Assembly: GCA_027451985.1 (NCBI GenBank)
Contig: DAIDHS010000001.1
Location: forward strand, 97,932 to 161,931
Source of the DNA: Elusimicrobiota bacterium
GTDB taxonomy: Bacteria > Elusimicrobiota > Elusimicrobia > UBA1565 > UBA9628
Direction: 5' to 3'
Length of the DNA: 64,000 nt
Shown here: in pieces, positions 12,813-31,800 of the stretch
Layout of the letters: each line of letters opens with the position of its first letter
How positions within the stretch are numbered: position 1 is the first letter of the stretch
The notes under the pieces: model-generated
What the model was told of the DNA's origin: nothing
Seen by the model: only the letters and a program-made list of their open reading frames with translations
Databases searched by the model: none
Translations under genes and position numbers: made by a program

Positions 12813-15398
12813 ATGGCCGATGAAAATTCGAATTTGAACAAGAACGGGGACAAGAAGGACGACAAGAAAGACGCCCTTCCTCCCACGCTCAAGGACTTCC
12901 AGAAAACCCGCATCAAATTGCAGGGCTCGGGTCCGCGCACGCTTCTAGAACGCATGAAGTCGTTCCGCAAAAAAGATTTGATGTTCATCCTTTCGGGTTT
13001 GGGGGTCCTGGTGGCGGCGCCTTTGGCCGAGCATTTGATGATGGGCTCGCAGCCCAACAGCGGCTTTCATCAGGGTTGGGATTTTAAGAACGGTTTGGGC
13101 GGCTTTGGCGGCGGCGGTTCGCCCTACGAGCCCGGCATCAACGGCTTGGCTCCGGGCCAGGCCGCCGGCGGCAACGGCGACATCATCACGCCCTTCAACG
13201 CCCGCGATCCCGCATCGCTCATTTTGAGCCCAGACGCTTCGGCCCAGCCGCCCGTGGGCTCCTCGAACGCGCCTTCATCCGACAGTGGCGGCCAGGACAA
13301 CGGCCAAGCGCCGTGGAAGAACGTGCTGGCCCAGGCCGGCGGCAACGCCGCGAACGCGGCGAGCCAAAGCGCCGGCCTGCCCACCGCGCCTCCCGCCTTG
13401 GGCGACGGCATTTTCAGCGCGCACGGTCCCGCGAACAGCACTTCGGCCTCTTACACGCCGCCCCCGATTTCGGCGGCCAACGTTCCCAATAGGGCGGCGG
13501 GCAACGACTCTTTGTCGCAGGTGCACGGCAACGGCGTCAGCGGCGCCTCGCCTTACGGCTTGACCAACGGCGGTTCCGCGGAGGGCTTGAAGAGCGCGGC
13601 CAACCAAGCCGGCGCTTATTTCAACCGGCCGACCTCGGCCGCGGGAAATTTGGAGAAGGCCGCCGCCGTCAACACGCCGACCGGCGGTTCGGGCAGCGCG
13701 GGCTCCGGCATGGGCGGGTCCCAGCAAGATAAGAATTCCGGCCAGGACTCGAACAAGAACAGCAAGTCCGCCGGAGAATCGCTGGCGGAGAAAGCCGCCG
13801 AGCAGAACCAGCAGCACGCCATCGATTTGTATTGGAAGAAGCTTGAAGAGCAGCAGATGGCGCCCATTAAGCTGCAGGAAGATATTCAGAAGACCATCGT
13901 CGAGACTCCGATTAAGGCCATCATGGATGAGGTCGGCAAGCAAATGGCTGCTGAGGTTAAGAAACAGTTTGCGGGCGCAGATACCGAATATACATGTACC
14001 AACGTCCCGGCTGAAATCGCAAAACAGATTCCGAACGGAATCTTCTATAACTGTGGTACTTCTGAAGCGAATAGTTTTTATTGCGTAAGCACTGATGACA
14101 ATTCGACGCTTATTGAACAAGATCCTACAGGTGCTGAAAAAGGTGGACCAAGCAGTAAGCCTACAGGCGCTACTTGCTCTGCATTGCCTTCTAAGGCTCC
14201 GCCTGATGGTGGTGGCGGACCTAACGGCGCTGGCAGCGGCCAGGCGGTCAACTTGATTGGAAACAAGAGCGCGGAAGCTGTCGATGCGGGCGCCTCGGCC
14301 ATCCTGGTTAATTTGGACAAGCTTTGCAACGCGGCTTCGGCTAATGAACAGGCGGTTCATCATATGTTTTCCGGCAACACAAGCATGCCGTTCGCTCATG
14401 ACGCAGGGAAAATCTATAATTCTACTTCAAAGACCGGTCCTGCGCATGATGTCGCCAAGGCTGTATATGAGCTGAGCGGAGACGCCTCCGAGGCCTGCGG
14501 TGTCAGTGGCGATGGTCATGACACGGCCATGGGACAAATTGGCGCTGCCAATACGAGCCTGAAGGCGGCTCGGTTTGACTTCCAGAGGGTTGCGGATAAT
14601 GATGGCGCAGCTTCGGATATCGCCGTCAAAATATTGTGTGGAGATTCCCAATCCTGCCAGCTTTCTCAAGTGGCAAAAGATGCCGCAGCCGGGAATGCCC
14701 AGGCAGTTCAGAATTATTGGAAGCCTATCCCGCAGCAGCTTCAACAAAACACTAAAAATGTGGATGGCAGCCTGACACAGGCCCAGGCTGCTCTGAAAAA
14801 AGGAGAGAAGGATATGGAAGCCGCAAACGCGGCCTTATCTAAAGCCGATAAAAAGATTGCGGACAATACAAACAATGGACCAGCTGCCGCTGAACAGATA
14901 AGCACCCTTATTAATGGAGATGGGGCCGGTTCCCCGTTTGCCAATTTTAAAGGAACGGTAGATAAGATTCAATCCAGTTACCCGCAATTGGTCGCGGCAG
15001 CTCAGAATCAGTCGGCCTCCTATCATGCTTTTGCCCAAACATACGCCCAACTACAGCCACCAGCACAAGCGGTTGTGAACGAAACTCAGCAGTCGTTGAC
15101 TCAACCGGCGCCTAATCCGCCGGCAGATCTTTCGTTAATAATGAAAAATCAATATTCTTTTGTTACACTCATGAATACAGATACTGCAACAAACGTGATA
15201 TCTAAGACGTTGAAATCTATAAGTAATTTTTGTCAAGAAGAATGGAACACCCAGGAAACTGTTGCTAAGGCGGAGTCGAATTTTGCGACTCAAGTGGCTA
15301 AGGCTCCTTTGGCGCCTGCACAAGGCGGCCAGAACGCGACTCCTAGCGCGAGCGATGCCCTGACTCGTCTTGGTGGGGCGTCCGCGTCAGCGCAATAA
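12813..15398 (+). CDS. hypothetical large membrane-anchored low-complexity surface protein
   Basis: 861 aa. AGGAG RBS. Single TM near the N-terminus (LMFILSGLGVLVAAPLA). Long G/A/S/N/Q-rich extracytoplasmic region with scattered Cys. The 3' ~1.5 kb of the gene has clearly lower GC than the rest of the window. Confidence 0.55.
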   Translation: MADENSNLNKNGDKKDDKKDALPPTLKDFQKTRIKLQGSGPRTLLERMKSFRKKDLMFILSGLGVLVAAPLAEHLMMGSQPNSGFHQGWDFKNGLGGFGGGGSPYEPGINGLAPGQAAGGNGDIITPFNARDPASLILSPDASAQPPVGSSNAPSSDSGGQDNGQAPWKNVLAQAGGNAANAASQSAGLPTAPPALGDGIFSAHGPANSTSASYTPPPISAANVPNRAAGNDSLSQVHGNGVSGASPYGLTNGGSAEGLKSAANQAGAYFNRPTSAAGNLEKAAAVNTPTGGSGSAGSGMGGSQQDKNSGQDSNKNSKSAGESLAEKAAEQNQQHAIDLYWKKLEEQQMAPIKLQEDIQKTIVETPIKAIMDEVGKQMAAEVKKQFAGADTEYTCTNVPAEIAKQIPNGIFYNCGTSEANSFYCVSTDDNSTLIEQDPTGAEKGGPSSKPTGATCSALPSKAPPDGGGGPNGAGSGQAVNLIGNKSAEAVDAGASAILVNLDKLCNAASANEQAVHHMFSGNTSMPFAHDAGKIYNSTSKTGPAHDVAKAVYELSGDASEACGVSGDGHDTAMGQIGAANTSLKAARFDFQRVADNDGAASDIAVKILCGDSQSCQLSQVAKDAAAGNAQAVQNYWKPIPQQLQQNTKNVDGSLTQAQAALKKGEKDMEAANAALSKADKKIADNTNNGPAAAEQISTLINGDGAGSPFANFKGTVDKIQSSYPQLVAAAQNQSASYHAFAQTYAQLQPPAQAVVNETQQSLTQPAPNPPADLSLIMKNQYSFVTLMNTDTATNVISKTLKSISNFCQEEWNTQETVAKAESNFATQVAKAPLAPAQGGQNATPSASDALTRLGGASASAQ

Positions 15399-15481
15399 TG
15401 TTTTTATTTCCAGGTTGCCGCCTTTTGCGCGGAGAGTCTCTTGGTGTGTGGACAAAAAACGGAACTCCTGCTATTCTTTTT

Positions 15482-15533
15482 GGGCCTAAAGTCCTATTGA
15501 CAGCTAGGCCCTTTGGGTCTGGCGAAATAGGAC
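15482..15533 (+). promoter_or_regulatory. nested inverted repeats (GGGCCTA/TAGGCCC and GTCCTATT/AATAGGAC) enclosing a TTGACA hexamer, upstream of the secreted-protein gene
   Basis: gggcctaaagtcctattgacagctaggccctttgggtctggcgaaataggac. The 8-mer arm is shared with the hairpin at 18278. Confidence 0.4.
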
Positions 15534-15554
15534 CGATGGGTTTACAACAGTAAT

Positions 15555-18173
15555 ATGAAGCGAACAGCGACGGCGGCCCTGGCGGCGGCGATTTTTGCTG
15601 GCCTTTCCGGCGTGGCGCTCGCGCATGAAGACGCGCCCAAAAATCCTGAAAGTTCCCAAGGGACGCTGGAGACCGTGGTCGTCTCCGCTCCGTCCTATTG
15701 CGAGGAGGAAGGCGACGCGGCGGCCGCTAAAATGGCCGCTGGGAATATTTTCCTCAGGGACGTGCTCAAGCAGGGCATGCCTACCCAGTTCCCTCCCGGG
15801 GTGTCCGATTGTCTGGACCAATGGTTCGACGTTTCGTCCCGTTCGGCCGCGGATTTGAAGGTGGAGTGCGAGATGCTCTATTCGCCCAGGGGATCGATGC
15901 AGATGAGATCCGAAGCGGTGCGCTATGGGAAGGCGCATCATCTTACCGCAAAGACGCCTTTGGGTGCGCCGACACCGCAGGACTCCACGGCGCCGCTCCC
16001 GACCTTGGGTTGCGGTAAGATTGACGGGTTTTTGTCGGATTTGGAAAGCGAAGCGAAGAGGTTGGCGCCGAAGATTCTCGCGCAGCAGGCTGCGGAGGCC
16101 AGAAAGCAGGAAAAAGCGGAAGAGCAAATTCCAAACGCATTCTCTATCAAGAAATCTCCCGGCAGTGTGAACGCGGCTGGCGCGGACTCTGTCACACCAA
16201 TTAAGGCCTCAATGTCCTCTTTGGCCGATACCACATCCTATGTGATGGTTCCTGAACAAGACGCCGGCGACATGTATCTCGCCGGCGCGGAAAAAGAGAC
16301 GGTCTGCCTTCCGCCCGCTCAAGGCGGCAAATGCTGGAAGCTGGCTCTAAAGGTTGTCTCCAGCGTCGGAGCCGCGGACCAGGCCGGCGTCGGCAAGGTG
16401 GGAGATAATTACATCGCCGTGGTGGACTACACCAACCCGGAGCATATCACTCAGGTGACTTTCCCCGATGTAGTTTGCAATCCCGCGGGTTCTTCGCCGT
16501 GCAATAGTTTTGATTTATCGGGCGAAGGGAAAAAATACAAATTCAGCCTGGGCCGCGACGACGACGGAGGCCTCACGATTTTCCGCGCCGATTCAGGGCC
16601 GGCGACCAGACCGCCCAAGAAGAAAGGGTTCTGGGGCGGTATTGAGAACTTGTTCAATGACGTCAAGTACGATGTCGCCAGCATGCTCCATGGCACCACG
16701 CTGACGCCGGTGGCCTACACCTCAACAGCGCAGCTCTACATGGATCGCAACGACGAGATTCAAAACCGCCCCACCGCCCAAGTGACGCTTGGCGGGCAGA
16801 AATTCAACATCATCAGCCAGGGCGGACCGCGCGGATGCCTGCTCTTTTTTGCCGTGGGCGCCGACGGCGGCCCCATGACGACCAACGACGGAGAGTATCC
16901 GGGATACAAGCCGAACATGATGGCGTGCGTCAATCAGGCCGAACCCGATGGCGTGCCCCAGATGATTTCCGGTCCGCAGTGCCTGGGCAGCTTTCCGCAC
17001 GGCGACCAAAGGGATACATATTCCATTCAGTGGCTGCCGCATTCTGCGGGAGGGATAGGGAGCGATTATAAGATCAACAAGATCCCGGAAGGCACCGGCG
17101 CATGCGCGCCGCCGGATCCCGCAGGATCCAAGCCTGACAAGCCGTCGGGTCCCGCGAGCAATCCCGGAACCAATCCGACGCCGGCTTCGAACAACCAATG
17201 CCAGTCCGGAGAGGTGCTTCAGGGCAAGACCGGCAAATGCTGCCCTTCCGGCGAGCAGCTGAGCGCGGATGAAAAACAATGCGTTACGCCGGATTCCGGA
17301 CAAAACCAGTGCGAATATAATTTGAACGGCGAAAACGCCTCTGGCAACGCAAAAATGAAGGTTCGGGATTTGGGCGATGGCTATGCTCTTTATCTTGGAA
17401 CCTATGATGCGGGGCAAGGCACAAAACTGTATCAATCGTATGTTTGCGATGAGAGCCGTATGATACAAGTCCCGGGAGTGGTTTCCGGGAATGTTCAATC
17501 CAAGAACGGCGAGATCAGCATTACGGCGTACAATCTCGGATATGACGGCAGTGTTTCACCCAAAGATTTTGCGGACATGACCCCTTTCCCAGCCGCTAGT
17601 GACGTGGCCAAGAAAGGCTTTCCTGAGGATTTTGTGAAACTCAAGGATGGTCACGACTTGGAGTTCTCGAAGTATAATCAAGGGTCAAATGCACAGATGT
17701 CAAAAGCACAGATTTACAATCTCCCCGAGGACGACTTCGGAACTTCGGCGCCTAAAAAAGCGCTGCTGTCGCAAAATGTAGCGAGTTCGATCGTAGCCAT
17801 CGATCCGCTCAGGAACGAAGTTTCCGAGATCGATGTTTATCCGCGCGGGGGCAGCGTTACGGCGGCGGTCCGAAACGCCATCAATAATCAGCTTCAAAAT
17901 ATGGATAAAGATCAGGCAGCCGCCCTTCAAAACGATAAAAATGGAGTTTTGAAGGATAGTTTGGGATTGCTTCCCTCGGATGCGTCCGTGGAGATTCATT
18001 TCGTATCGGGGCAGAACGCGTCCCAGGCGACTGGTTGCAGCCCGGCCGTAACCGCTTCCTATAGTGCCAAGGGCAAGACTGTGAGCAAGACCCTTGTGGA
18101 TTACCAGTTCGGCAAGCCTGCCGTGACGCTGTCTCCGTTTATGGCGCGTTGCGAGCCGAAATCGAAGCCGTAG
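15555..18173 (+). CDS. hypothetical secreted Cys-rich protein
   Basis: 872 aa. Cleavable signal peptide MKRTATAALAAAIFAGLSGVALA. Many Cys pairs (CCPSGEQLSADEKQCVTPDSGQNQCEYNL; GKCWKLALKV; VVCNPAGSSPCNSF). No enzymatic motif recognised. Confidence 0.55.
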   Translation: MKRTATAALAAAIFAGLSGVALAHEDAPKNPESSQGTLETVVVSAPSYCEEEGDAAAAKMAAGNIFLRDVLKQGMPTQFPPGVSDCLDQWFDVSSRSAADLKVECEMLYSPRGSMQMRSEAVRYGKAHHLTAKTPLGAPTPQDSTAPLPTLGCGKIDGFLSDLESEAKRLAPKILAQQAAEARKQEKAEEQIPNAFSIKKSPGSVNAAGADSVTPIKASMSSLADTTSYVMVPEQDAGDMYLAGAEKETVCLPPAQGGKCWKLALKVVSSVGAADQAGVGKVGDNYIAVVDYTNPEHITQVTFPDVVCNPAGSSPCNSFDLSGEGKKYKFSLGRDDDGGLTIFRADSGPATRPPKKKGFWGGIENLFNDVKYDVASMLHGTTLTPVAYTSTAQLYMDRNDEIQNRPTAQVTLGGQKFNIISQGGPRGCLLFFAVGADGGPMTTNDGEYPGYKPNMMACVNQAEPDGVPQMISGPQCLGSFPHGDQRDTYSIQWLPHSAGGIGSDYKINKIPEGTGACAPPDPAGSKPDKPSGPASNPGTNPTPASNNQCQSGEVLQGKTGKCCPSGEQLSADEKQCVTPDSGQNQCEYNLNGENASGNAKMKVRDLGDGYALYLGTYDAGQGTKLYQSYVCDESRMIQVPGVVSGNVQSKNGEISITAYNLGYDGSVSPKDFADMTPFPAASDVAKKGFPEDFVKLKDGHDLEFSKYNQGSNAQMSKAQIYNLPEDDFGTSAPKKALLSQNVASSIVAIDPLRNEVSEIDVYPRGGSVTAAVRNAINNQLQNMDKDQAAALQNDKNGVLKDSLGLLPSDASVEIHFVSGQNASQATGCSPAVTASYSAKGKTVSKTLVDYQFGKPAVTLSPFMARCEPKSKP

Positions 18174-18353: not shown

Positions 18354-21300
18354 ATGGCGTCAAAATTCTTGGCGGCAGCGCTGGCCTTTTTGACCGCGCT
18401 TTTCCCCGGCCTCCAGGTCGTCTGCGCGCAGGCGATGAGCGCGGTCGAAATTCCCGCCCAAGGGAATATCAACCCGCAGAACATCTCCAGCCTGAATCTC
18501 TCGCTGAATCAAATCAACGACTTGATTCATTTGATCCAGTCGAACGAAGCGCAGAGCGCGGGTTCTCCGTTCGGTGCGAACCTGTCCCAAGAAGATTTCA
18601 ACCAGATGCTCCAGTACCTGGAGCAGCTTAAAGCATACTATGGCCACTCCGGACGGACGATGCCTCGGGCCGTGGCGCAACGGGTCCAGACGCTGATGCA
18701 GGATATCAAGAGCGGCAAGGTGGATCCGGGCATCGCGTTCGCCAATTTCTACGCGGGCACCGCGCCGGCGGTGGAAGCCGTCCAGACCGGGGACATCACC
18801 GAGAAGCCAAGTTATCCCAATGCCCGTGAAACCGACATCGTGCGCAAGGATTCCGTCACCGGGAAGGTGGTCTCTTATTTACGGAGCATCCAGGAAGACG
18901 CCGTGGTCCGTCTGGTCATCAGCAGCTTGCCCGATGCCTCAGCGCCTGGAGGCAAGGCGGTTGACATCATCGCGTTCGTGGGGCAGGAAGGCGCGGCCCA
19001 GGTCCAGCACCCGCTTTATAGCCGGGGCATGGAGATTTTGCTTAAGGCCCTGGTTAAGCTGTATTACCAGCAGCCCGATTTGCAGGCAAAAATTGACAAG
19101 GCCTCCGGCGCGGCCAAGGCCAAGCTCCAGGCCTTGTTGGCGGCGAACCGAAAAACCTTCCCTCCGGAAATTAATTCCTACCTTCATCATCTGGGGCAAA
19201 TCGAGAGCGAGAGCGGCGGATTGGCCGGCCACGACTGGACCGACGCGGACTATCAGGAATATGAGAAGGTCGCCCAGATCGCCCAGGACTTTTACGCCAA
19301 AAAAGAAGGAACCGGCCTGGAAAAGCGGGCGCTGGCCATCTTCACCAGCTACATCGCCATGGCGACGAACAGCAACCCCGTGCAGGAGAAAGACGGGCTG
19401 CAGGAAGGAGGGCTTGATGCCGAGCCCATGGCCCAACTGCAGAAGGCGCTGACCAGCTTTGAAAAGGGCCAACTATCCGGCTATAAAACCATCTTGTCCT
19501 GGCTCCACGACACGCGCATCAATTATGCGGATTGGCCGGCTCAGATCAGCCAGCAGGCCGCTGAAATCGTGGCCGACTTGGGATACGCTTCCTCCGACGC
19601 TGGCCAGGCCTTCGCGCACACGACAGGCTCCATGCAGAAAGGGAAAGCCGCGCAATTGGACCGGCAGGAGCACGAAGCCGCGTTGGCGGCCCGCAACGGC
19701 TGGCTGAACCTGTCCAACCTCCAAATCCTGTCGTTCCAGATGAAGATGTTGGCGATTGCCGTTGCCAAGCTCAAGTACGGTGACATGCGCGGGCACGTGG
19801 GGATTCAGGGCGATAAGAAAATGCAGGATGAGGCCGATCGCCTGATAAAGACGCTCGAGCAATACCTGATGCAAATCGAGGAATGCGTCAAGCAGTCGCG
19901 GGATAATTTAATGAGGCAGGCTATTGCCGGTTTTTACCTCGATTTGCAGAATGCGCAGATGAGCTATCTCTATGGCGGCGCCCTGCGCAATCAGGTTTTG
20001 GACATGGCGGCCAAGCTCGAGGAGATGGAGAGCCTCTATCTGTCCCAGCAGTTTGACAAGAAAATGACCGGCCTGCGCTCCGCTGATGAAAGTTCCGCCA
20101 TGGCCGGCAACGCTTACAAAGAATTCCTGGCGCATCTTCCCCCGGATGTCGTTCCGTTGGTCAAGTCCATGGATGCCTTGCAGGCCGAGCTGAAATCCAT
20201 CGCGGGCCTCAATGATTCAAAAGCGATCCGCCAAGCTCTCTGGCCTGTGTGGAAGCAATTCGCCGCCATTGCGGAAAAGCTGGGCTATCGGGGAATCCCG
20301 GATGAAGACACGGTGGACAAGGACTCCAAGGCTTTGTCGCTCAAACAGGCTAAGCTCATGCAGGCGGCGCAGCAATTCGCCATCCACTTGAACATGTTCG
20401 ATACGGCCAACCAGTACAACTTGATTCTTCTGCAAAACGCCAGTTCCCAGCGGCTGCCGGGCGTCAGCGATCATTGGTACAGCAAGTTGCCGCAGCGGGC
20501 GGAGGGAGCGGTGATTTCCGGCGGCGCCAAAGCCATCAACGGGGTGACCAACGCCGGCATTTGGCTCCTGAACAGGCTTCCCGGGGTTAATATCTCCTAC
20601 AAGCACATCCATGCCAGCTATGATTCATTGACGGACGCGGGCGTTGAGCACGATGGAACGCTGGTGACCGGTATGCTGCGCGGGGTGGGCGACAGTGTTT
20701 CCTGGAATTCCACGCTTTTCCACAACTTCATGATCCGCAAAGACTTGCGCGCCAAGATGCTTGATCAGCTTCGCGCGGGCGATTTCACTGGCGCGGAGCA
20801 GACTTGGGTCGACATAGACCCAAGCGGCGCGGCGCAAGCGTGGGACATGCACATCCGCGAGAAGGCTCCGGACGACAATCTTTACAATCTGGATATTGGA
20901 AAATTCGTGGCTCACGCTCCGGACGACAGGTTGATGGTGGAATCGGGGGGCGCCATGCAGGATTTGGGCATGATGCTCAAGCCCATCATCATGGCCTACC
21001 AGCTGACTTCGGCGGCCATTGATACGGTCGTCATGACGGTCGTCACGCTCGGTTTCGGCGCCGCAGTCGGCACGACATTGCGCGCCGTGGGCGGCGCGGG
21101 GGTGGCAATCGCCCGGGGGCTGGGCATGACCGCGGACGCGGCGGACGTGGCCGAAGGTCTTGGGGATGCCGCCAGAGCCGGGGAATTGGCCTCGGATGCC
21201 GCCGACGCGGCTGATGTCGGTGCTAACCTTGGGCAAGATGCTAAAGATATCGGAACGATCCGCCGGATTGCGTCTTCGACCATCGGATTTATAGGCAAGC

Positions 21301-24300
21301 ACTTGGAATCTTGGGGAACGGGCATGCGCAACGTGGTCGGATTGTCCGACGTTTCCCAAGGCGCGTCCAAGGCCGTCGTGCTGCGGCAGATGATCCAGTC
21401 GTCCGCGAAATTTACCGTGGGCAACGCGGTCATGATGTCCGGCGTTTCCGCGGGCATTTCAGGCGTTGACTATCTGCGCCATCCGGAGACGTCGAACGCT
21501 CAAAACTTCTGGGACGCGTCGCTTGAAGGCGCTATCGGAGGACTGTCCTTCGGCGCGCGCTCCGGCCCTCTGTTCTTGCTCATGCCGCAGGCTTCGGCAT
21601 TCGGCGCCGGGACCATGGGCAAGGCCGTTCGCGGCTTGGCTGATTCTCCCGGGCCTCTCAATGGATTGGTCCGCCTTGGGGCGAAGCTAATTCCTGGAGC
21701 CGCCGACACGGAGATTGGGGGCGCTTTGATAGATAAAGGCTTGTGGGGGTCCATCGGGACTTTGGGCGATTCTCCGCTTTTAGAGCAACTCGCGCGGACC
21801 TCGGCGCACTTCGGAGCGATGGTCGACGGCGCCTTGAAATACATGACCGCCAATTCGATTGCGGAGAATGCCGCGCAATTCGCGGCTTACGAGCGAGATG
21901 CCCACAAGACGCTTGGCGCGGCGGAGAAAAAACAGTTGGCGGACGAGGGATCGAGCCAACGCACTTACGCTTTACGGTCGGCTTTATCTGCGGGAGACGC
22001 TGCGGGACAAGCCAGTTGGTTCCTGATTCCCCAGAATCAAATGGGCAGCGCGAAGGATCGGGAACAAGGGATTACGCATGCCGGGGCGCTCAGCGAGATG
22101 CTTCATCAGGATCGCGGCCTTGATATCGAGATGGCGACCAAAGACCAAACGCTCTATGTTGATAAGCCGTGGCTCCAGCAATCCTGGAGAGAGCGGGCTC
22201 GCGGCCTGGGGAATTTTCTTTTCTCAAGCGAGCATAAGGCGACCGCGCCGCGCATGGAGCTAAAAGTAAGCGAGGCGGATCGGGAAGCGGCCGCTGTTGA
22301 GAGGATGAAGGATTTCAGCGGCGCGGATCTTTTGGCGGTCACGGAGGCGCCCAGGGATGAGGTGCGCGGGAAAGTCCTCGGGCTTTCCGATCTGAAAGGA
22401 ATGCTGGGCGGGGAATACGACGGTGCGCCCGAGGCGCCGCAGCCGGCAGGGAATGTCGTGGATATCTCCCAGGAACGCACTAGGCGCGGCACGAAGCAGA
22501 AAGCCAAAAAAATCGAAGCTGAGAGCGCGAGGACTTACGAAAATCTGCCTCAGCGGGATAAATTGGACGCTCAGAGCGTGCGCATGAGCGATGAAATTCA
22601 GGAGGCGGCTCGTTCCCAGCTCAAGAAGTGGCTTAAGAATAACCCGGATGAAATTGCGAAGATTCGGACGGCTGTGGAAGCGGAGAAAAACGGGAAATCC
22701 GGGAAATACATGATGCCTGATGGCAAAGGAGGAGAAATCGCCGTGCGCGGCGAGCCTTTGAAGAAGCTCGCGAATTTGGCGGCGCTGCAGGAAATTGCCT
22801 CCGGAGCCCAGCCCCGCACGGCGGCGGAAAAAACGAAGGCTTACTGGGAGCGCGTCAAGGATTCTTTAAGCGGCAAACCTATTAAGGACGGTTATCAAGT
22901 CCTGGTTTCCGATCTGCGCGGGGAGATCCACGGCGATACGGCGAAGGAAATCATCGATTCGACCCAGCAGGCGCTTCAGAACAGAATTGATTTAAGAAAG
23001 TCGCAAGGCAAGGAGAATAAGACGTGGGCGCTGGAGCAGGTCCGCTCGACCATAGAGTCGGATGCCTACATAGATTACGTCAACCGCAAGATGGCCGAGG
23101 ACATATCCGCTTACCGGAAAGGGAATCTTTCCGATGCGCAGCTCGACGCGGACGTTAAGCTATTCCGGGACGTTTGGGAGGAAGGCGTCTTCGGCAAGCG
23201 GTTTAAGAAGAGCGCGGACCAGAAAGGTAACGCGGTGTGGGATATCCCACCCGAATACCAATTCAAAGACGCTCACGGTCATCTCGTGACCAGTTTCAGG
23301 GATTTCCAAGCCGCCTCCATCGAATCGGTTATCAAGGATTTAGCGGCGGGACGCAATAAAATTTTCCGCCTTCTGGAAACGGGCGGCGGAAAGACTCTTT
23401 TAAGCTTCACCCTGCTAAGCCTTTTTAACACCATGGCGCAAATGAAGGGCCGCGAGGGCGCCATTTACGCGACGTCCAACGCGAACTTGGTCGCGCAGGC
23501 CAATGAGGCCTACCGGGCGTTTTTTAAGGGCCGCGAGGCGCCGTTCAAGATCGAAACCTATGAGCAGGTCATGCTGGATCAGGCGCTGGCCCAAGCCCAT
23601 GGGCGGCTGAGCCCTTACCAGACGCATTATGTCATCAACGACGAGTACGATCAATTGGGCACGCAGACGGCTCTGTCATTGGGTAGTCCCAACGGTCGAT
23701 TGAGCTTCCCATCCATCGATCCAATTCAGGCGGCCATGCGGGAAGGAGCCTTGGAGGCGCGCGGCACACTGCACGACGAGTTCGGCGGAAAGGATTTGGA
23801 TGAAAAATCCATTGCTGAGCTGCAAAGGGAAAATCCAGCTTTTGCGGCGAAGATGGACGCGTTGAGCGCGCACACGGCCAGCAATATTCAGGAAGCCATC
23901 CGCCGAGTGAACTCGAAGGCGTTTAAAGCGCAGGTGCTGGATATCCACTCTGAGCTTTACCGAAAAGCGCAGGCGAAAGGGCAGATTCCAGAGTTTTCGT
24001 CCGTCGCAGAGTATGAGGCATATTTCCATATGACGCCGGAGCAGGTTTACGGCACGATGCAGAGGGAAGTTAAGCACGCTTTCGGCGAATACGCGTTGCC
24101 CGGCTGGGTGCAGACCGCTTTCCATTGGGCGCACCTTGATCTTCCCATGCCTGAAGCTCTGCAGAAGGCGACAAAGAGCCGGACTTTTATGGCCGGGTTG
24201 CCGCTTGACGCGTTCGTTAAGGTCGGGGTGATTGAGCGGCAATTCGGCAGTCTGCAAGATTGGATCAAGGATAACCTTGAGGGCGCCTATATCGTGGGTT

Positions 24301-25736
24301 CTTTCAGCCCGGAGAAACTCTCTGCGATCTATGCCCGCGGCGAAGAGGTCGACCCGAGCCATCCGGAAGAATTGCACCAGTACCACGCGGACGTGCCCAT
24401 GGCGAACTTGGACACCAAATACCGCGGCGCGCTCCAGCTGATTGAGAACAAACCCCTGGAACTCAAGTACGACAATATGGCTGTCGTTGACTTCGCGGCG
24501 TTGAATGCGGCTGCGCGCGAAGGCGGCGGCGTGGTGGTGGCTTTGTCGGGAACTCTCCCTGGGCCGGAAAGACGCTTTTTGAGCAAGCAGGGTTGGAAGG
24601 TCTCGGGAGAGGGCAGCGCCCCGGCGCAGGTTGAATACAAAGCCGTCGAGCCCGGCATGGCTGACAGTGTACTGGCGAAAGACGTTGCTCAGGACGCCAA
24701 GATTAACGGCGCCGGGAAAGAGAAGGTTCTGCATATCGTTTTCCTGCCCAACAAGGCTCAGCAAAGAGCCTTTGAAGCGAAGCTTGAGCAGGCCGGCGTT
24801 CCCGCCTCCCGGCGTTCCGTGGTGGTAACGCCCGACTCCAATTTGCAGGAAAATGAAAGACTGATGTATCAGGTGCGGGACGCTAAGAACTTGAAGGCTT
24901 TGAGCAAGGGCGACGTTGACGTGGCCATGATCGTTGGACGATCGGGCATTCGCGGGCTGGACATCGATTTCGGGGCCTACGCTGGCGGGCGCATTGAGTT
25001 CGACATCATCGATCCTCAGGATTTGTCCATGACCGATCTTATTCAGCTCGTCGGACGAGCGGCCGAGGGACGCCTGCCTAAGAATACCAGCGGCAAGCCC
25101 TCCATCTCGGTTAGCTTCCACGGGATCGTGGACAGCAAGGATTTGCCGGAGTCGCTGAGGAAAATTGAGGGTACGCCGGAATTCAAGGCCGAGTTTGAAA
25201 AATATGTTCAGCAGGCGCAGAAAAACGCGGAAGAGGCGGCTCTGAAATCCTCCGGAATTTATGATTACAAAGCGCCGCAACTTCCCAAGTTTTTACGGTT
25301 CATGCAGAAAAAAGCGCCGAAGCCTTCAATTCGCGTGCCGAGCGGAACGGGTGTGGGTGGAGGTCAAACACAGGTAGTCGTGCCGCAAGGCAGCTCTGTT
25401 GAACCGATGGCAAAGCGAGTCAAGGACGAGGAAGAACGACCGCTGTGGTCTTCCTCTCCAAACGTGACGTGGCAGGAGAATGCCCGGCGATATTGGAATA
25501 GCCACCGCAGCAAGTTCCCGGAATATAAGAATTGGCGCGAGTACGTCAAGGGAGCGAACGAGTTCGTCAATCGGCCGCCACTGGGTACCCTGGCTAAAAC
25601 CCAGCCTAACGGCGATGTCGTTCTTTATAACCCTCAGACCAACACCTTCGTCATTCGCACCGCCGATGGGGTTCCGCGAGCGATGTTCAAACCTAAGGCT
25701 GGTATGAAATACGCGGCTAAGTACCTCGGCCAATAG
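18354..25736 (+). CDS. giant 2460-aa protein with signal peptide, central hydrophobic segment, embedded SecA-like DEAD-motor ATPase and a distinct ~110-aa C-terminal module
   Basis: Signal peptide MASKFLAAALAFLTALFPGLQVVCAQA. Hydrophobic segment AIDTVVMTVVTLGFGAAVGTTL at ~aa 880. The motor region (nt ~23260-25090) has Walker A FRLLETGGGKTLLSFTLLSLFN...ATSNANLVAQANEAY (SecA: [22 protein letters not shown]...TVNDYLAQRDAE), the DEAD-equivalent HYVINDEYDQLGTQTALSLGSPNG (SecA: [22 protein letters not shown]), motif III VVALSGTL, motif V MIVGRSGIRGLDI (SecA: ATNMAGRGTDI) and motif VI LIQLVGRAAEGRLP (SecA: NQLRGRSGRQGD). C-terminal module ...WNSHRSKFPEYKNWREYVKGANEFVNRPPLGTLAKTQPNGDVVLYNPQTNTFVIRTADGVPRAMFKPKAGMKYAAKYLGQ. 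Confidence 0.7.
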   Translation: MASKFLAAALAFLTALFPGLQVVCAQAMSAVEIPAQGNINPQNISSLNLSLNQINDLIHLIQSNEAQSAGSPFGANLSQEDFNQMLQYLEQLKAYYGHSGRTMPRAVAQRVQTLMQDIKSGKVDPGIAFANFYAGTAPAVEAVQTGDITEKPSYPNARETDIVRKDSVTGKVVSYLRSIQEDAVVRLVISSLPDASAPGGKAVDIIAFVGQEGAAQVQHPLYSRGMEILLKALVKLYYQQPDLQAKIDKASGAAKAKLQALLAANRKTFPPEINSYLHHLGQIESESGGLAGHDWTDADYQEYEKVAQIAQDFYAKKEGTGLEKRALAIFTSYIAMATNSNPVQEKDGLQEGGLDAEPMAQLQKALTSFEKGQLSGYKTILSWLHDTRINYADWPAQISQQAAEIVADLGYASSDAGQAFAHTTGSMQKGKAAQLDRQEHEAALAARNGWLNLSNLQILSFQMKMLAIAVAKLKYGDMRGHVGIQGDKKMQDEADRLIKTLEQYLMQIEECVKQSRDNLMRQAIAGFYLDLQNAQMSYLYGGALRNQVLDMAAKLEEMESLYLSQQFDKKMTGLRSADESSAMAGNAYKEFLAHLPPDVVPLVKSMDALQAELKSIAGLNDSKAIRQALWPVWKQFAAIAEKLGYRGIPDEDTVDKDSKALSLKQAKLMQAAQQFAIHLNMFDTANQYNLILLQNASSQRLPGVSDHWYSKLPQRAEGAVISGGAKAINGVTNAGIWLLNRLPGVNISYKHIHASYDSLTDAGVEHDGTLVTGMLRGVGDSVSWNSTLFHNFMIRKDLRAKMLDQLRAGDFTGAEQTWVDIDPSGAAQAWDMHIREKAPDDNLYNLDIGKFVAHAPDDRLMVESGGAMQDLGMMLKPIIMAYQLTSAAIDTVVMTVVTLGFGAAVGTTLRAVGGAGVAIARGLGMTADAADVAEGLGDAARAGELASDAADAADVGANLGQDAKDIGTIRRIASSTIGFIGKHLESWGTGMRNVVGLSDVSQGASKAVVLRQMIQSSAKFTVGNAVMMSGVSAGISGVDYLRHPETSNAQNFWDASLEGAIGGLSFGARSGPLFLLMPQASAFGAGTMGKAVRGLADSPGPLNGLVRLGAKLIPGAADTEIGGALIDKGLWGSIGTLGDSPLLEQLARTSAHFGAMVDGALKYMTANSIAENAAQFAAYERDAHKTLGAAEKKQLADEGSSQRTYALRSALSAGDAAGQASWFLIPQNQMGSAKDREQGITHAGALSEMLHQDRGLDIEMATKDQTLYVDKPWLQQSWRERARGLGNFLFSSEHKATAPRMELKVSEADREAAAVERMKDFSGADLLAVTEAPRDEVRGKVLGLSDLKGMLGGEYDGAPEAPQPAGNVVDISQERTRRGTKQKAKKIEAESARTYENLPQRDKLDAQSVRMSDEIQEAARSQLKKWLKNNPDEIAKIRTAVEAEKNGKSGKYMMPDGKGGEIAVRGEPLKKLANLAALQEIASGAQPRTAAEKTKAYWERVKDSLSGKPIKDGYQVLVSDLRGEIHGDTAKEIIDSTQQALQNRIDLRKSQGKENKTWALEQVRSTIESDAYIDYVNRKMAEDISAYRKGNLSDAQLDADVKLFRDVWEEGVFGKRFKKSADQKGNAVWDIPPEYQFKDAHGHLVTSFRDFQAASIESVIKDLAAGRNKIFRLLETGGGKTLLSFTLLSLFNTMAQMKGREGAIYATSNANLVAQANEAYRAFFKGREAPFKIETYEQVMLDQALAQAHGRLSPYQTHYVINDEYDQLGTQTALSLGSPNGRLSFPSIDPIQAAMREGALEARGTLHDEFGGKDLDEKSIAELQRENPAFAAKMDALSAHTASNIQEAIRRVNSKAFKAQVLDIHSELYRKAQAKGQIPEFSSVAEYEAYFHMTPEQVYGTMQREVKHAFGEYALPGWVQTAFHWAHLDLPMPEALQKATKSRTFMAGLPLDAFVKVGVIERQFGSLQDWIKDNLEGAYIVGSFSPEKLSAIYARGEEVDPSHPEELHQYHADVPMANLDTKYRGALQLIENKPLELKYDNMAVVDFAALNAAAREGGGVVVALSGTLPGPERRFLSKQGWKVSGEGSAPAQVEYKAVEPGMADSVLAKDVAQDAKINGAGKEKVLHIVFLPNKAQQRAFEAKLEQAGVPASRRSVVVTPDSNLQENERLMYQVRDAKNLKALSKGDVDVAMIVGRSGIRGLDIDFGAYAGGRIEFDIIDPQDLSMTDLIQLVGRAAEGRLPKNTSGKPSISVSFHGIVDSKDLPESLRKIEGTPEFKAEFEKYVQQAQKNAEEAALKSSGIYDYKAPQLPKFLRFMQKKAPKPSIRVPSGTGVGGGQTQVVVPQGSSVEPMAKRVKDEEERPLWSSSPNVTWQENARRYWNSHRSKFPEYKNWREYVKGANEFVNRPPLGTLAKTQPNGDVVLYNPQTNTFVIRTADGVPRAMFKPKAGMKYAAKYLGQ

Positions 25737-25816: not shown

Positions 25817-25824
25817 ATCCCGTC

Positions 25825-28800
25825 ATGCGAGGGGAATTCCGTATGGGACTAAAGGCCTGGGGAACCCTGGGCCTTTTTAATCCACCTCGGGGGGCCATTA
25901 GACTCTCTTCAGGGCAACCGCTGACCAGTATTCTATTCACATACGCGCGCATGAAAAAGGTTCTTTATAAGCTGACGGCCGTCGTGGTGACGGGAGCGCT
26001 GTTGCTCCTGACTCCGGGCATTTCCTGCTATCAAGTTCTCGCGCAGGATGTCAGCGCCGAGAGCGAGCAGAGCCAGACTCCGGTCAACATGAACTTGGGC
26101 GGGCAACTGGAAACTGTCCCGCTTGAGCAGATGGCGGTTAATCCCGCCGCAGGCGGCCTTTACCAGCTTCCCGACATTCACGTCCCGCCGTCCGAAACCC
26201 TTCCGGTTGGCGCTTCAGCAGTAAAATCCGCGGCTCAATCCGTTTCCGCGTCGGCACAGGCCGCTTCCATTCGGGCGCAATCGGTGCCCGCTGTGGAGGG
26301 TGCGCAAACCGCCGCGGCGGCTCTGCCTGAGACGCCCGCTGCCGCGGCCCTCTCTAATGGCGCCGCGTCCGTTACTCAAGGGCGCGTCGGGACCAGACAG
26401 AGATATTCCCGCGCCGCGGCTTTGTCCGCCGCTCAGGATGGGAGGCAGGCAGTTCGCCTCGGGTCTTTGGGCTGGCTTCGGAGCACCGCCGGCAAGGTGC
26501 GTAGCTGGATTAAACCCGGCGCTTCGGCCGCGAACCTCAAATTTGAGTCCAACAAGTCTTTCGACGCGGCCTACGGGAAATCGGCGGCCGTTCCGTCTGC
26601 AGGAAAATCGGAATCTTTGAGACCCGGCCGCAAGGGGCGAATCGCAAGAACCCTGGGACTTGCCGGGGCCATCGCCGTGCCCGCTGCCGCGGCCGCCATT
26701 CCGCTGCCGGCGAAGGCTGCAGCCGTCGTACACGCCGCGGCCCATTCCGGCCTCATTCATAGCGTCGGGCTGACGTTCCACGCGATTTTGACGGCCATTG
26801 GCCCCGCCGGCATCCATGCCATTTACCTCAGTATGAATGTCTTGGCCGCCGGGTTGGCCTTGCCCGAAGTCCTGCGGACGTTCCGACGCGGCAGCGCGCA
26901 TCAGGTTCCCATGGGCGAGTTGACCATGGCCGTGGTCGGCTCCGCCATCTTCGGACTCATCATCGGCCCGATGAAAGGCTATTGGGGCTGGGCCGCGCAG
27001 AATAACTATGGCGGCTTGTCCATGCTGGCCGTTCTTCCCATCGGCTGGATTTTAGGCCGCGGGGGCGTCAAAATTTTCGGCAAGCGCTTCTGGGGTCCCA
27101 TCCCGGAGCCGCAAAAAACGGAGAATCCCTCCGCGGAAAAACCGGGGCTGCTCAGGCGCATATGGAACGGCTTCAAAGATCCCGCGGTTTTGAGAACCAT
27201 CGCGGCGGCGGCGCTCATCGGAGTTGCGGCCGTTGGGTTCACCCAATTGGCCGCCGCCGTTGGCCCGGCAATTTTCCCGCCGCTCTTGAATTTCGTCGCT
27301 TCCTTGTTCCCGACTACGGCTTCGGGCATGGGTCTTTTGACGGCAGCGGTGCTTTCGGTCCCCGGCTACATCGCGCTCAAGTGGCTGCGCGGGCTTTTGA
27401 AGAGCCCGGTGTCATGGAAAAAGAAGGCGCTGCTGGGACTGCCGCTTCTGGCCGCTTTCCCGGCGATGGCCTTCTGGCTTTGGCCGATGGCCAGCGCCGG
27501 GGCCTTGCCCATGACGGCGGACAAGCTCGTTTCACTCCTGAGCGGCTTGGGCGGGGGGCTCTTCGTCTTCTTGTTCGCTCCCGAGGTCATCCGGGCGTTG
27601 ATTGTGGGTGAGGATTCCTCCAAGCACTTCAACTGGCGAACGTCGCTTATTTTCTCGGTGGCAAGCTTGGGATTCCTGATTTATTGGGGCAACCAGTATT
27701 TCGTCAACCCCGCGTCGATGGGCGTGGCCATGTCCAACATGATCCAAAACGCCATCGGGGGGCTCTTCTCGACCATCAGCTTCTTGCTGGCTTGGAAGCA
27801 CAGAAACCATAAGGTGGCGTCGGCTGCGGAGGAGAACGGTAATGCCGCCCGCGTCGCTGCGGCCGGGGAGGCCGAAAAAATCTCAAATCCCGGACAGGCG
27901 CCTCCGGATCGCTCGCCGCCCGGAGAAAGTCCGGGCGCGCCTAAAACCGAGGGCGAAAACCTCTCGCCCCACGTTTACGAAAACATCTTCGGTTTTAGAG
28001 GAATCAAGGGCCGTTCCTACGCATCCGCCGACAGCAAACTCCAGCCTCTCACCTCTCGCTCCACATCATCCCAGATCGTCGATCGAATTTCCTTTCAATT
28101 TAATATCTCTCGTGACAAAGTATTACTTATAGCATCTCGGCAAGGGATTTCGGAGGCGGCTCCGGCTGCCAGGTGGTTGGCGGTCTACGAGCGGCTCCAG
28201 AAGTCCAACTACGAGCGGTTCAAGGAGTTGGATCACGCCAAGAACGCCGGCCATGGTCTTTTTGGCGAGGCGATCCGGAAAGCCTGGGCTCGGCTGCGGG
28301 GCAAGGCGGCGCCGGACACGGCAGGGTTCCGCAGACTCGCCAACAAGACCTATGCGCCCGGCGCCAAGGGAGTGCTCCAGCGCGCGGCCGGAGTCCATCG
28401 CCTCGTAATCGGCTTCTGGATCGGCTTTGTCTACGAGTGTTTCGACTCCTTCATCCTGGGCTACTTCCGGCAGGCGATAAGCTTCCATTTCCGCCACCGG
28501 AACGAGGACTTCCTAGGCATCGCCGCTGGGCGACAAGACGAACAGGCTGGCGCCTTGTCCGAAAACGCCCTGGCCGCCGCCATCGCCGGCGTCCAGGGCC
28601 GGGGCTTGACCGCGATGGAGCGTTTCAACGCGACGGCCGTGGGGCACGCCGTGTCCGGGGCGGTCATCCGGCCGTTCGTCCACCCCCTGCTGACGTTCCT
28701 GCGCCGCCGTTTAGTCATGGCTCTCCTAAGCGCCGTCGCCATGGGGTTTTTGGGCGCCGCCGCGCCAGCCATGCCGTTTCTGTCCATTTCAGTTTTGACC

Positions 28801-31800
28801 GTTCCGTTTTTAGGGCCGCTCATTTTGCACGCGTCGCATTTCTTCTTGTTCTCGGTTGCCTCGATTCCTGGGGTAGGCCATTTCTTGCTTCCCGTCGTGA
28901 CCAAGGCGGTCAACGCCTTACTCAAGGACTTGGTGCTGGGCCCCATGCTCAACACCTACGTGCTCTCGTTCCTGATGGCGCTCACGCGGCGCCCCGTTCG
29001 GCAGTGGTTGCCCGCGCTTAAGAGCGGTTCGTTCTGGTGGGAGAGTCTAAAGACGTACTTTGGCATGATGACCATCGGCGCCGAAATCGCCGGATGCTTG
29101 AGCTATTTCGCCGGCATCGACAGCGCCATTGACTCCCACGGCTTTTATCAGCTCATCGGCAAGCACATCCATAGCCATTTCCACCTATTCCACGCGCTGG
29201 GCTCGGCGGTGGAAAGCCCCAAGGGCCAAAGCCTCATTCCCTTCGGAGGCGCCATCACCTGGGGCAACGCCCTGCTCTACCACTTCCAAAACGCCATTCA
29301 CTTCAACATTTCCAACTGGATCGCGGTCCACCTTAATCCCGCGGCGCTGGCTCAGGGGGGAGCCCACCGCGCTTTCGAGATGGGGATTTCCAATCCCCTC
29401 CAGAGGGACTTCCAGTTCAATGCCAAGGACTACTTGGCTTCACCGAAGCAGGCTAAGGCGCGCCTCAAGCAGATGGACTCCAACGCGAGCTTCTCCGAAC
29501 TGAGAAAGGAACTGGCCGCTGCCAAAGCCCGGGAACAGGCGCTAAGCTCCGCGGAGGGCCAAGCACAGGACCAGATTCTAAAACTCAAAAAACAACGCCG
29601 GCCGATTACGCCTCAGGAAAAGGCAGAGTACCAGGCGCTATTGAAACAGCTTCAACGTCAGCGGGAAAACGTCTACGCCCAGAATAAGCTCGCGGAAATG
29701 CGCGACTTGAAGGGGCGCAACCCGAAGAGCGACCTTCTCCTGAAATTAACGGCGCTGAAAAAGCAATACGCCGGCCGGCTCAACCCCAAGCCGACGGACA
29801 AGACGGACTACTGGCACGATCTTGGAGTCAAGGAGTCGCAATACGCATCGATGGCCGCCCGGCTCTCGCAGATTGTCCAACCGGCCGGTGGGAATCCGCC
29901 GGACCCAAATGGCGCGGCGCGTTCTTCGGCAGCCAGCGGGGCCGCGTTGGCGGCTGTCAGTGCCGATGCCAGCAAAGACCTTGACGCCATTAAAAGTTCG
30001 ATTCAAAAAATAAACACCAAGCGGGAGGCTTTAAAGGGCGAACTTCTGCGCAAACAGGCCCTTGAGAAGCTCATGGACGCGGAAGCCCGCCTGCGCCAAA
30101 TCGCGCTGGACCAGCGCCGGGACGGCAAGGCGATGCAGGGTTTTCATCAGAGCCTCTCGCAGTTGGACTCGGTCATGGGACTGGCGCTGTCCCAGAACGA
30201 GCTCAACGCCGCCTTGAAGGCCATCAACCAGATGCAGACGCTCATCGGCAACAAGGACGCGACCATCAACCAATCCATCAGCCAAGATCAGGCCAACCTC
30301 CAACAGATTCAAAATCTGCTTAATCAGGAGCAGCAACAGTGGCAGCAGCAGGTCACCCAGCAGGTCAATTCGGACAACCAGGCGCAGAGTGACATGAAGT
30401 CGACCCAGGGAGAAGTCGTCAGCGTCATCTCGTCAGTCCAGACGTTCAGCCAGAGCGAGAAGAACCTCATCGCGAACATCAACACTACGGACGGTGGCGC
30501 CAGCGGCAACGCGCTGACTGAGTACGCCCGCCGCCTTGCGCTCATCCAAAACGGAACCATCGCGCAGTGGGAAAATTCGGGCGGCAATCCCAACGTGACC
30601 TTCACGATGAGCCAGCTAAACGGCTACCTCCAGCAGATTTCCGCGGGCATTCAAGAGGCCCAGAACGGCCTGCAGACGCTTGAGAAGGCTCCGCAAAATT
30701 TCGCGGAAACGGCCATTCTGGAGGTACCAGGGCCGGCGGTCAATGTGCCGCCTAATCCAAGTAAGGCGGATATTCTAAACATCTTGTCCCAGCGCCAAAC
30801 GTATTGGCAGAACGAGCTCAATAGCTACGAGAGCCTGCAGACCACCATCCGGGAAATGGGCGATCCGAACAACCACGCCATGACGCAGAACGTGTTCGGC
30901 GATTCGGAGCCGCAGTCCCTGCCGGTTTGGAAGAGCCAGGAGCAGGGTGTCCTGACCCAGGATCAGACCCAGATCGGCAAGGATACCCAGCAGATGGATC
31001 AAATGGCCGCCGCCGTCAACGCGGCGTTCGGATCCCATCTTCCCATGCTTTCCGGCCAGTCGCTGACCCAACTGCAGAGCGAGGTGCAGAACTACGCGAA
31101 CGATTTGACCGCCCTCAAGATGCCCTCCGGGACGGATCCCAAAACCGTGGAAGCCAAGATGAACTTGATCAACTTGGCATATCTGGTTTCGGACTTGGGC
31201 AACCAGGTCATCAACGCGAGCGTCGCTCAGCAGACGATCACCACCATCGACGGCGCCATGTCCACGACGCTGCCCCAGGCGGCGCAGGGCATCGATGCCA
31301 TCGTGCAGATGGTCAAGAACATCCTGGCGGACGAGCAGATGGACGTGGCCTACGTCAACGGCGACCAGGAGACGCAGCAGCAGGTTTTTACCCGGAAGGA
31401 AAACCTGCTGCAGAACGAGATTCTGCCGTCCCTGCAGCAAGCGCAGAGCATGCTGCAAAATGATCTAATTCCCTTCCAGCAGCAGACGATCGCGTCCTAT
31501 CAGCAAAGCAACTCCACCACGGGCTATTACTACCTATACACGACCAAGCAGTCGTTCCTGACGCAAATCGAGAGCCTCTATAACACCACCATGCCGTGGT
31601 CCATCGAGACGTTCGGGGGGGTGTCGGGAGACAAGGCGGGTTCCCTGCAGGACGTCGCCGCGTGGAAGACCCAGCTGCAGGGCTATTTGACGGGCTACAA
31701 GGACAGCAGCGGCGTCGAGCAGCAGGGCCTTGAGCAGGCTCTACAGGAAGCCAACGACCGCATGACCACGAACTTCAAGGGCAATTCCCAGGACCCTGCG

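Follow-up and report, generated by a model that had tools for sequence, protein, structure and literature searches.

A giant Elusimicrobiota protein with a predicted signal peptide, one conserved membrane segment and a SecA-like motor ATPase

The motor-bearing giant and its family

The window analyzed here is a 64,000-nucleotide stretch of the genome of an Elusimicrobiota bacterium (assembly GCA_027451985.1, contig DAIDHS010000001.1, positions 97,932 to 161,931), and it encodes a giant envelope protein of 2460 amino acids (aa) in a single ATG-to-stop open reading frame (ORF) at 18354..25736 (+), as determined from the ORF listing and its translation. An original prediction, made from the sequence alone, had described this protein as carrying a SecA-like motor ATPase behind a signal peptide and a hydrophobic segment. 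Two orthologues, P0002 (76% identity) and P0003 (59%), align to the protein from end to end.

In order to place the protein in a family, the motor region (aa 1630-2330) was used as the query of an exhaustive phmmer search against 1.84 billion representatives, which yielded 50 cluster representatives, while an earlier word-index search had given only three close relatives and P0004. Nearly all of these 50 relatives are 2,000-3,400 aa long and carry the motor in their C-terminal part, and no SecA protein is found among them. All family members with a named source derive from metagenome-assembled genomes of Elusimicrobia/Elusimicrobiota, and a scan of genome contigs from GTDB genomes detected two loci, both again in Elusimicrobia/Elusimicrobiota; the family appears to be confined to this phylum. 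Its members are named either “hypothetical” or “DEAD/DEAH box helicase family protein” in the databases, and our literature search found no paper describing this family of Elusimicrobiota motor giants. With full-length orthologues, 50 relatives and catalytic residues that are invariant in an alignment of 17 members, the 2460-aa gene is real and no chance artefact.

The N-terminus of the protein (aa 1-27; 18354..18434, +) is signal-peptide-like in a Kyte-Doolittle (KD) hydropathy scan, with K4, a hydrophobic core and an A-Q-A site ahead of M (...VCAQA, then MS), and nearly all full-length family members share such a basic, hydrophobic start with an AxA-type site. Signal peptides and transmembrane (TM) segments were called for the family from hydropathy and family conservation, not with dedicated predictors. 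The N-domain that follows (aa 28-880; 18435..20993, +) is a helical region of ~850 aa without an enzymatic signature that is conserved in orthologues and has no match in Pfam, NCBIfam or PHROG. Only one strong hydrophobic segment occurs in the whole protein, at aa 883-914, and hydropathy averaged over 40 aligned members of the family places a single conserved TM segment at aa 891-909 (TVVMTVVTLGFGAAVGTTL; 21024..21080, +), with a mean KD value of 1.54 across the family and 1.83 in the window protein. No other 19-residue stretch reaches a family-mean KD value of 0.9 in these 40 members. The segment is followed by a Gly/Ala-rich juxtamembrane region (aa 910-1240; 21081..22073, +; ...GGLSFGARSGPLFLLMPQASAFGAG...SPGP...; A 17%, G 14%), which is strongly conserved in orthologues and can be aligned over the 40 members, and by a linker between membrane region and motor (aa 1241-1629; 22074..23240, +) that is charged in composition and variable, with indels among orthologues.

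As a cleaved signal peptide and one TM segment imply an N-out/C-in topology, the N-domain would be extracytoplasmic and everything past aa ~910 would be cytoplasmic, which fits the motor because an ATPase requires the cytoplasmic side. The cleavable-looking signal peptide and the hydrophobic segment near aa 880 that had been noted earlier are both borne out, and the proposed order of periplasmic N-domain, TM segment and cytoplasmic motor holds by hydropathy throughout the family. One sub-branch (P0018, P0020, P0030 and P0040) has a ~340-aa C-terminal extension in place of the toxin-type tail described below, ending in an extra hydrophobic, TM-like segment, and this extension would tether the motor region to the membrane at both ends.

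Architecture of the motor and its likeness to SecA

The motor (aa 1630-2283) resides in the C-terminal half of the protein, as had been stated, and all motif strings quoted in the original prediction are present in their stated order. The first part of RecA-like lobe 1 (aa 1630-1781; 23241..23696, +) matches ResIII at E 6e-6 and is modeled by AlphaFold2 (AF2) at a predicted local distance difference test (pLDDT) value of ~80-94; it contains FRDFQ (aa 1648-1652), the Walker A motif ETGGGKT (aa 1675-1681, nt 23376-23396), the motif Ia stretch ATSNANLVAQA (aa 1706-1716), the Walker B motif NDEYD (aa 1762-1766) and an exit strand, ALSLGSPNG (aa 1773-1781). Next comes an inserted all-helical domain (aa ~1782-1977; 23697..24284, +; helices H161-H353 of the AF2 model) at the position occupied in SecA by the preprotein cross-linking domain (PPXD), and the gap from Walker B to motif III amounts to ~300 aa. 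The second part of lobe 1 (aa 1978-2068; 24285..24557, +), delineated from AF2 and from a profile alignment to SecA 350-395, consists of a beta-hairpin, a helix, a strand, a helix and the strand of motif III (ALSGTL, aa 2063-2068). RecA-like lobe 2 (aa 2069-2283; 24558..25202, +; pLDDT ~85-95) bears motif V, VGRSGIRGLDI (aa 2194-2204), and motif VI, QLVGRAAEGRLP (aa 2231-2242, nt 25044-25079, including QLVGRAAEGR), and aligns to the second nucleotide-binding domain (NBD2) of SecA and to DEAD-box lobe 2 alike. A terminal long helix with an L(K/R)SSG(I/V) motif (aa 2284-2305; 25203..25268, +; AF2 helix 646-669) ends the conserved body. This helix of 24 residues aligns with low confidence to the start of the SecA scaffold helix, and the motif recurs near the C-terminus of most family members, most of which end 10-40 aa beyond it.

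In an alignment of 17 members that are 23-84% identical, G1679/K1680, D1763/E1764, R2200/G2201, Q2231, R2235 and R2240 are invariant and S-G-T 2065-2067 of motif III is nearly so. As the catalytic residues are invariant across such divergent members, the motor ATPase is under purifying selection. Two RecA-like lobes with Walker A and B and with motifs III, V and VI, the latter including the arginine finger, are a feature of SecA proteins that the motor possesses. The insert varies in length across the family from ~65 aa (P0004) to >1,300 aa (P0043, P0051). One further relative, P0032 (1023 aa), is an odd repeat protein made from part of the ATPase lobe, with ~11 tandem repeats that each resemble motor residues 587-647 (motif VI and the next strand).

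The AF2 model of the motor, built from the 17-sequence alignment, has a mean pLDDT of 85.9 and a predicted template-modeling score (pTM) of 0.80 (an input of four sequences gave an unusable pLDDT of 45). When this model was compared with the PDB using Foldseek, ranks 1-14 were all SecA/SecA2, led by 6itc_A (E 1.5e-10, TMq 0.47, ~700 aligned columns), and the first match outside SecA was UvrB (E 1.3e-7), followed by MDA5 and XPD. The AlphaFold check proposed in the original prediction has in this way returned a confident model with SecA/SecA2 as its 14 best Foldseek matches in the PDB.

Profile-profile alignment with HHalign locates this likeness within the fold. Alignments of the family to lone E. 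coli sequences were uninformative (P 6.5e-6 for DeaD, 5e-4 for SecA), hence profiles of 31 SecA/SecA2 and 31 DEAD-box sequences, E. coli included, were used, with the sequences taken from viral-contig loci by degenerate motif patterns such as a Walker A DNA pattern. The family aligned to the SecA profile with a score of 70.8 (P 2.6e-7, Prob 93%) over 518 columns in a single colinear alignment (query 6-678, SecA 48-650) and to the DEAD-box profile with a score of 62.1 (P 1.1e-6, Prob 91%) over 347 columns, and the SecA and DEAD-box profiles aligned to each other with a score of 60.0 (P 2.9e-6, Prob 88%) over 524 columns. The first part of lobe 1 shows a high-confidence alignment to SecA 100-228, with high posterior confidence at Walker A and at motif Ia, which is of the T-x-N..L type in both (IYATSNANL in the family, HVVTVNDYL in SecA). 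Walker B and the exit (“stem”) strand, HYVINDEYDQLG..TALSLGSP, are aligned to SecA at a posterior confidence of 6-9, and the piece of the first nucleotide-binding domain (NBD1) that follows the insertion, GALQLIENKPLELKYDNMAVVDF...ALSGT, is aligned with high confidence to SecA ...GMTGT. Read as GALQLIENKPLELKYDNMAVVDFAALN...VVALSGT against SecA ...LAGMTGT, this post-insertion piece equates aa 2025-2068 with SecA 350-395 at a posterior confidence of up to 9. On the DEAD-box profile, in contrast, the N-terminal lobe aligned with low confidence and the true Walker B was not aligned to DEAD. As in SecA, an insert interrupts NBD1 of the motor behind the Walker B strand, and the lobe continues through a hairpin, helix, strand and helix before motif III. 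Taken with the structural ranking, this supports a first lobe that is wired in the manner of SecA and a motor that may work like, or be distantly related to, SecA.

The toxin-type tail and the conserved operon

Two features of the locus had been overlooked in the original prediction, a polymorphic-toxin tail at the C-terminus of the giant and the conserved operon in which its gene resides. The tail (aa 2364-2460; 25443..25733, +) is of the CdiA C-terminal (CdiA-CT) type and matches PDB 8ey4_A, a “PT-VENN domain-containing protein”, at E 4e-23 in a phmmer search. It is 50-57% identical to the extreme C-termini of filamentous-haemagglutinin (FHA)/CdiA proteins on Rhizobium and Burkholderia plasmids, and related ORFs occur on plasmids of E. 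coli and Salmonella. Next in line to these plasmid tails (in Rhizobium, E. coli and Burkholderia) is a small gene for a “CPCC family cysteine-rich protein”, which probably acts as the immunity protein for the tail.

Comparison within the family indicates that such tails are exchanged on conserved bodies. Over the motor, P0002 and the protein at locus L009 share 85% identity with the window protein, yet they end in an unrelated CdiA_C (PF18451) tail, which is followed by a 138-aa SitI3-like, immunity-like gene (L002 11732-12148; L009 12606-13022), and P0003 has no tail at all. P0010 and P0002 share 81% identity in their tails but 32% in their bodies, which is a clear exchange of a toxin cassette. 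A recent horizontal acquisition of the window tail was considered on the basis of composition and set aside, as neither GC content nor GC at third codon positions is distinctive.

The giant is encoded in a conserved chromosomal operon, free of mobile elements, that comprises genes for an 861-aa protein, an 872-aa protein, the motor giant and a polytopic giant of ~5,200 aa. The genes preceding the motor giant encode proteins of 542, 363, 861 and 872 aa, all without a family match; the last two (12813-15398, and 15555-18173 with a signal peptide; together 12813..18173, +) are the conserved upstream members of the operon. Downstream lies the partner giant (25951..41658, +), which has ~5,235 aa when read from MKKVLYK, its likely start, and 5,277 aa when read from 25825, where the mechanical ORF begins. 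Apart from a signal peptide, the partner has TM segments both in a polytopic region (roughly aa 270-1000) and at the C-terminus, together with very long Q/N-rich coiled coils and a beta-rich middle. No Pfam match was obtained for it, whether searched whole or in 600-aa pieces. Homologues of the 861- and 872-aa proteins are encoded upstream of motor giants at L001, L002, L004, L006, L008 and L009, and homologues of the partner giant (32-74% identity) are found downstream in all six contexts examined, including those of motor giants only 32-44% identical. The co-occurrence with a polytopic giant neighbor that had been proposed as a check was thus observed in every one of these contexts. No paralogy was found among the operon proteins. 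An origin as a polyvalent protein of a phage or plasmid was rejected, given the lack of PHROG matches and a synteny that is chromosomal and conserved, and TolC-like repeats that had seemed visible by eye in the 5,277-aa neighbor were dropped, as Pfam gave them no support.

The spot between the two giants is one of recurrent insertion in other genomes. A Y1_Tnp-like gene of the REP-associated type is located there in three other Elusimicrobiota genomes (L004 18053-20971, L006 17540-18457, L008 18715-20666), and two of these three also have a gene for a TrkA-type K+ channel at this place. Upstream of the operon in the window are two divergently oriented genes, at 5960-7957 (-) and 8005-9627 (-). 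One encodes a 665-aa protein that combines FliG_M/FliG_C with tetratricopeptide (TPR) repeats and has an N-terminal hydrophobic segment, and the other a 540-aa protein in which TPR repeats are joined to an outer-membrane beta-barrel of the PorV/PorQ-like kind. Beside P0003, the PorV-like gene is found in the same place, with 80% conservation.

Interpretation and comparison with known systems

We propose, tentatively and with somewhat less than an even chance of being right, that the protein is an N-out/C-in giant whose cytoplasmic motor energizes the movement or remodeling of polypeptides for the envelope assembly encoded by its operon. The signal peptide, which would be cleaved, would direct the helical N-domain of ~850 aa through the inner membrane, the TM segment at aa 891-909 would anchor the giant, and the C-terminal ~1,500 aa would remain in the cytoplasm. 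The cytoplasmic end would be an active superfamily 2 (SF2) ATPase with its first RecA lobe wired like SecA NBD1, and its substrate would be polypeptide (the giant itself or the partner proteins) and not nucleic acid. The giant would then be the membrane-tethered energizing subunit of a conserved multi-giant envelope apparatus made of the 861-aa, 872-aa, motor and ~5,200-aa polytopic proteins, and the C-terminus in the lineage of the window would have gained exchangeable CdiA-CT-type toxin cassettes. Such cassettes would imply a C-terminal tip that can leave the cell and, in some lineages, reach other cells.

A number of results weigh against this proposal, and those concerning the motor also bear on how far it should be called SecA-like. 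The motifs present in order are the general SF2 set and are not specific to SecA. The original prediction had let the assignment turn on the best profile match, and here generic SF2 models win: Pfam ResIII is matched in 13 of the 17 aligned members (best E 9.6e-11) and DEAD in 4, while SecA_DEAD (PF07517, searched to E<=10), SecA_PP_bind (PF01043), SecA_SW (PF07516) and Helicase_C are matched in none of the 17. When the family profile was searched against all PDB sequences, the chains matched (E 0.005-2) were those of DEAD-box, RadD, Brr2, RecQ1, HsdR and UvrB proteins, with SecA absent at E<=10, and a Foldseek comparison with viral models gave DUF3638 proteins that equal SecA in E-value, with a lower template-modeling score. 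The HHalign scores of the family to the SecA and DEAD-box profiles are nearly alike, and with 60.0 between those two profiles, the distance of the family from SecA is about that which separates SecA from DEAD-box proteins. The insertion of ~330 aa that had been placed at the PPXD site is confirmed in position, but it is not a PPXD and its length is not constant in the family: it has a zero-confidence HHalign alignment to PPXD and no SecA_PP_bind match, and it is all-helical. Neither a wing domain nor a two-helix finger was found, with no SecA_SW match and an HHalign alignment that ends at SecA 650; past lobe 2 there is only the one 24-residue helix, with the SSGI motif ~30 aa further on as the limit of the conserved body. 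For the tail, most of the ~50 family representatives lack one, no plausible ORF for an immunity gene exists in the 214-nt gap 25737-25950 behind the window copy, and the motif NAYxHWTKHxxEF, invariant in bona fide tails (L011, L191, L193), reads NARRYWNSHRSKF in the window, where Y replaces H, S replaces K and K replaces E. A C-terminal toxin on the cytoplasmic side would, moreover, have no obvious exit route.

Without a PPXD, a wing domain or a two-helix finger, and at a sequence distance similar to that between SecA and DEAD-box proteins, the motor is not a SecA; it is predicted to form a SecA-like lineage of its own and ought not to be classed as SecA. What it has in common with SecA/SecA2 is a two-lobe SF2 “DEAD motor” in which lobe 1 is interrupted by an insert after the Walker B strand, together with the type of motif Ia, a long helix after motif VI and a predicted site at the cytoplasmic face of the inner membrane. 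It differs in that its insert is variable and all-helical where the PPXD of SecA is alpha/beta, in lacking the C-terminal Zn/SecB-binding tail as well as the wing domain and the finger, with which SecA pushes its substrate, and in its covalent tether to the membrane, as part of a 2,460-aa protein of which it forms the C-terminal third. The claim of a SecA-like motor is accordingly retained for the Foldseek ranking and the colinear profile alignment, and given up at the level of Pfam, where the match is to generic SF2 models.

These profile results speak for another reading, in which a generic helicase or translocase of nucleic acids (ResIII/DEAD type) would be tethered to the membrane and would track along DNA or RNA at its inner face, for DNA uptake, DNA export or phage defense, with a likeness to SecA that is convergent. 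To the ResIII and DEAD matches can be added a full set of SF2 motifs, a ResIII match above the gathering score (24-27 bits against a cut-off of 22.5), a faint match to EcoAI HsdR as the only NCBIfam hit of the motor, the NCBI label “DEAD/DEAH box helicase family protein” on P0003 and P0015, and an opening FRxxQ motif of the kind typical of ResIII-like helicases. However, the ResIII match covers only aa 1648-1740 and is not accompanied by a Helicase_C match, and full-length Foldseek comparison favors SecA by ~3 orders of magnitude over UvrB, MDA5 and XPD. With its large insert, lobe 1 fits the split NBD1 of SecA with high confidence, whereas on the DEAD-box profile its Walker B is out of register. 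Library scans found no nuclease, methylase or nucleic-acid-binding accessory domain, and the motor is membrane-anchored and encoded among genes for giant secreted and membrane proteins of the envelope, not among restriction, CRISPR or competence genes. We regard the helicase alternative as unlikely, though by no means negligible.

The tail raises the alternative of a polymorphic-toxin effector, in which the whole giant would be an exported vehicle that presents or injects the C-terminal toxin, with the ATPase as cargo or as a helper in the target, like the polyvalent proteins of phages and conjugative elements. The signal peptide, the homology of the ~90-aa C-terminal domain to CdiA-CT, the swapping of tails between divergent bodies and the immunity-like gene behind the CdiA_C tails of P0002 and L009 all agree with such a vehicle, and the last three are the respects in which the giant resembles CdiA toxins. 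Yet it lacks the two-partner secretion (TPS) domain, FHA repeats, VENN motif and CdiB partner of those toxins, and scans of the giant against Pfam, NCBIfam and PHROG found no trafficking module (TPS/FHA, Rhs, LXG, PAAR, MuF). Ahead of the toxin are a cytoplasmic ATPase and a conserved stop-transfer TM segment, which separates it from the signal peptide, and the operon is conserved on chromosomes across the phylum without mobile-element genes. Since most family members, P0003 among them, end without a toxin, toxin delivery is not the ancestral role. In the window, where no CPCC-family homologue was detected anywhere in the 64 kb, the missing immunity gene and the substituted polar residues make it possible that the tail is a decayed or repurposed toxin. 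The toxin-vehicle alternative is in our view improbable. Still less probable is a mechanical or structural part of the envelope, such as an adhesin or the anchor of a surface filament, with an ATPase that remodels or powers surface assembly together with the neighboring giant and without translocation through a channel. The FliG_M/FliG_C-TPR and PorV/PorQ-like genes that adjoin the cluster, the long coiled coils of the partner giant and a helical N-domain devoid of enzymatic signatures are consistent with it, but those two genes are divergent and confirmed beside only one orthologous locus, the operon yielded no genes for motility or pili, and toxin tails would be left unexplained.

The proposal of a tethered motor that acts on polypeptides can be extended to an operon that is an unrecognized, Elusimicrobiota-specific envelope-spanning secretion or attack machine, in which the cargo-fused SecA-like motor would feed the toxin tip or partner proteins through a conduit formed by the neighboring giant. 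This extension is itself improbable; if true, it would represent a new type of secretion system.

The original prediction knew of no SecA-type motor inside a giant membrane protein, and on this point it has to be corrected, as divergent SecA-like modules have been reported in giant proteins of Omnitrophota and some Actinobacteria (West-Roberts et al. 2023, bioRxiv 10.1101/2023.11.21.568195). The Omnitrophota proteins exceed 30,000 aa, with many TM segments and many enzymatic domains, and have signal peptides near the N-terminus and TM anchors ahead of C-terminal SecA-related domains, which are detectable in Pfam as SecA_DEAD and SecA_PP_bind and lack the scaffold and wing; a role in exporting the giant itself or accessory proteins was proposed by the authors (bioRxiv 10.1101/2023.11.21.568195). 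Compared by published description, the Elusimicrobiota giant is alike in its signal peptide, extracytoplasmic part, TM anchor and C-terminal SecA-related module without scaffold or wing, in stemming from an uncultivated phylum rich in huge proteins, and in the similar export role that is suggested for it. In contrast, its family belongs to another phylum, and at 2,460 aa it is 10-30 times smaller, with one TM segment and no other known domain. Its motor goes undetected by the SecA models of Pfam and has a variable, helical insert, and the family is further set apart by its polymorphic-toxin tails and by a fixed operon with a second giant of 5,200 aa. None of the Omnitrophota giants is among the 50 phmmer matches to the motor region. 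SecA-like modules in giant membrane proteins are accordingly known, and what is new is the Elusimicrobiota variant, which is not a first.

If the motor does handle polypeptide, a SecA-like engine fused to a giant secreted protein recurs in a second deep phylum and is no oddity of Omnitrophota, and this compact form of 2.5 kaa would be far easier to express and study than giants of 30-80 kaa. The exchangeable CdiA-CT-type tails would provide a natural reporter for export of the C-terminus, and they hint at interbacterial antagonism in a phylum with almost no experimental biology. The conserved operon, whose giants lack annotation, may encode a new envelope machine. A Pfam-level label such as “DEAD/DEAH box helicase” may mask lobes of SecA-type topology, which come to light only through structure prediction and profile-profile alignment.

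Immediately after the two giants, the window encodes at 41695-45272 (+) a dCache-HAMP-PAS histidine kinase (723 aa) and a LysM/FecR-like/glucodextranase-B-like protein (469 aa), which are candidate regulatory or cell-wall-binding partners of the giants.

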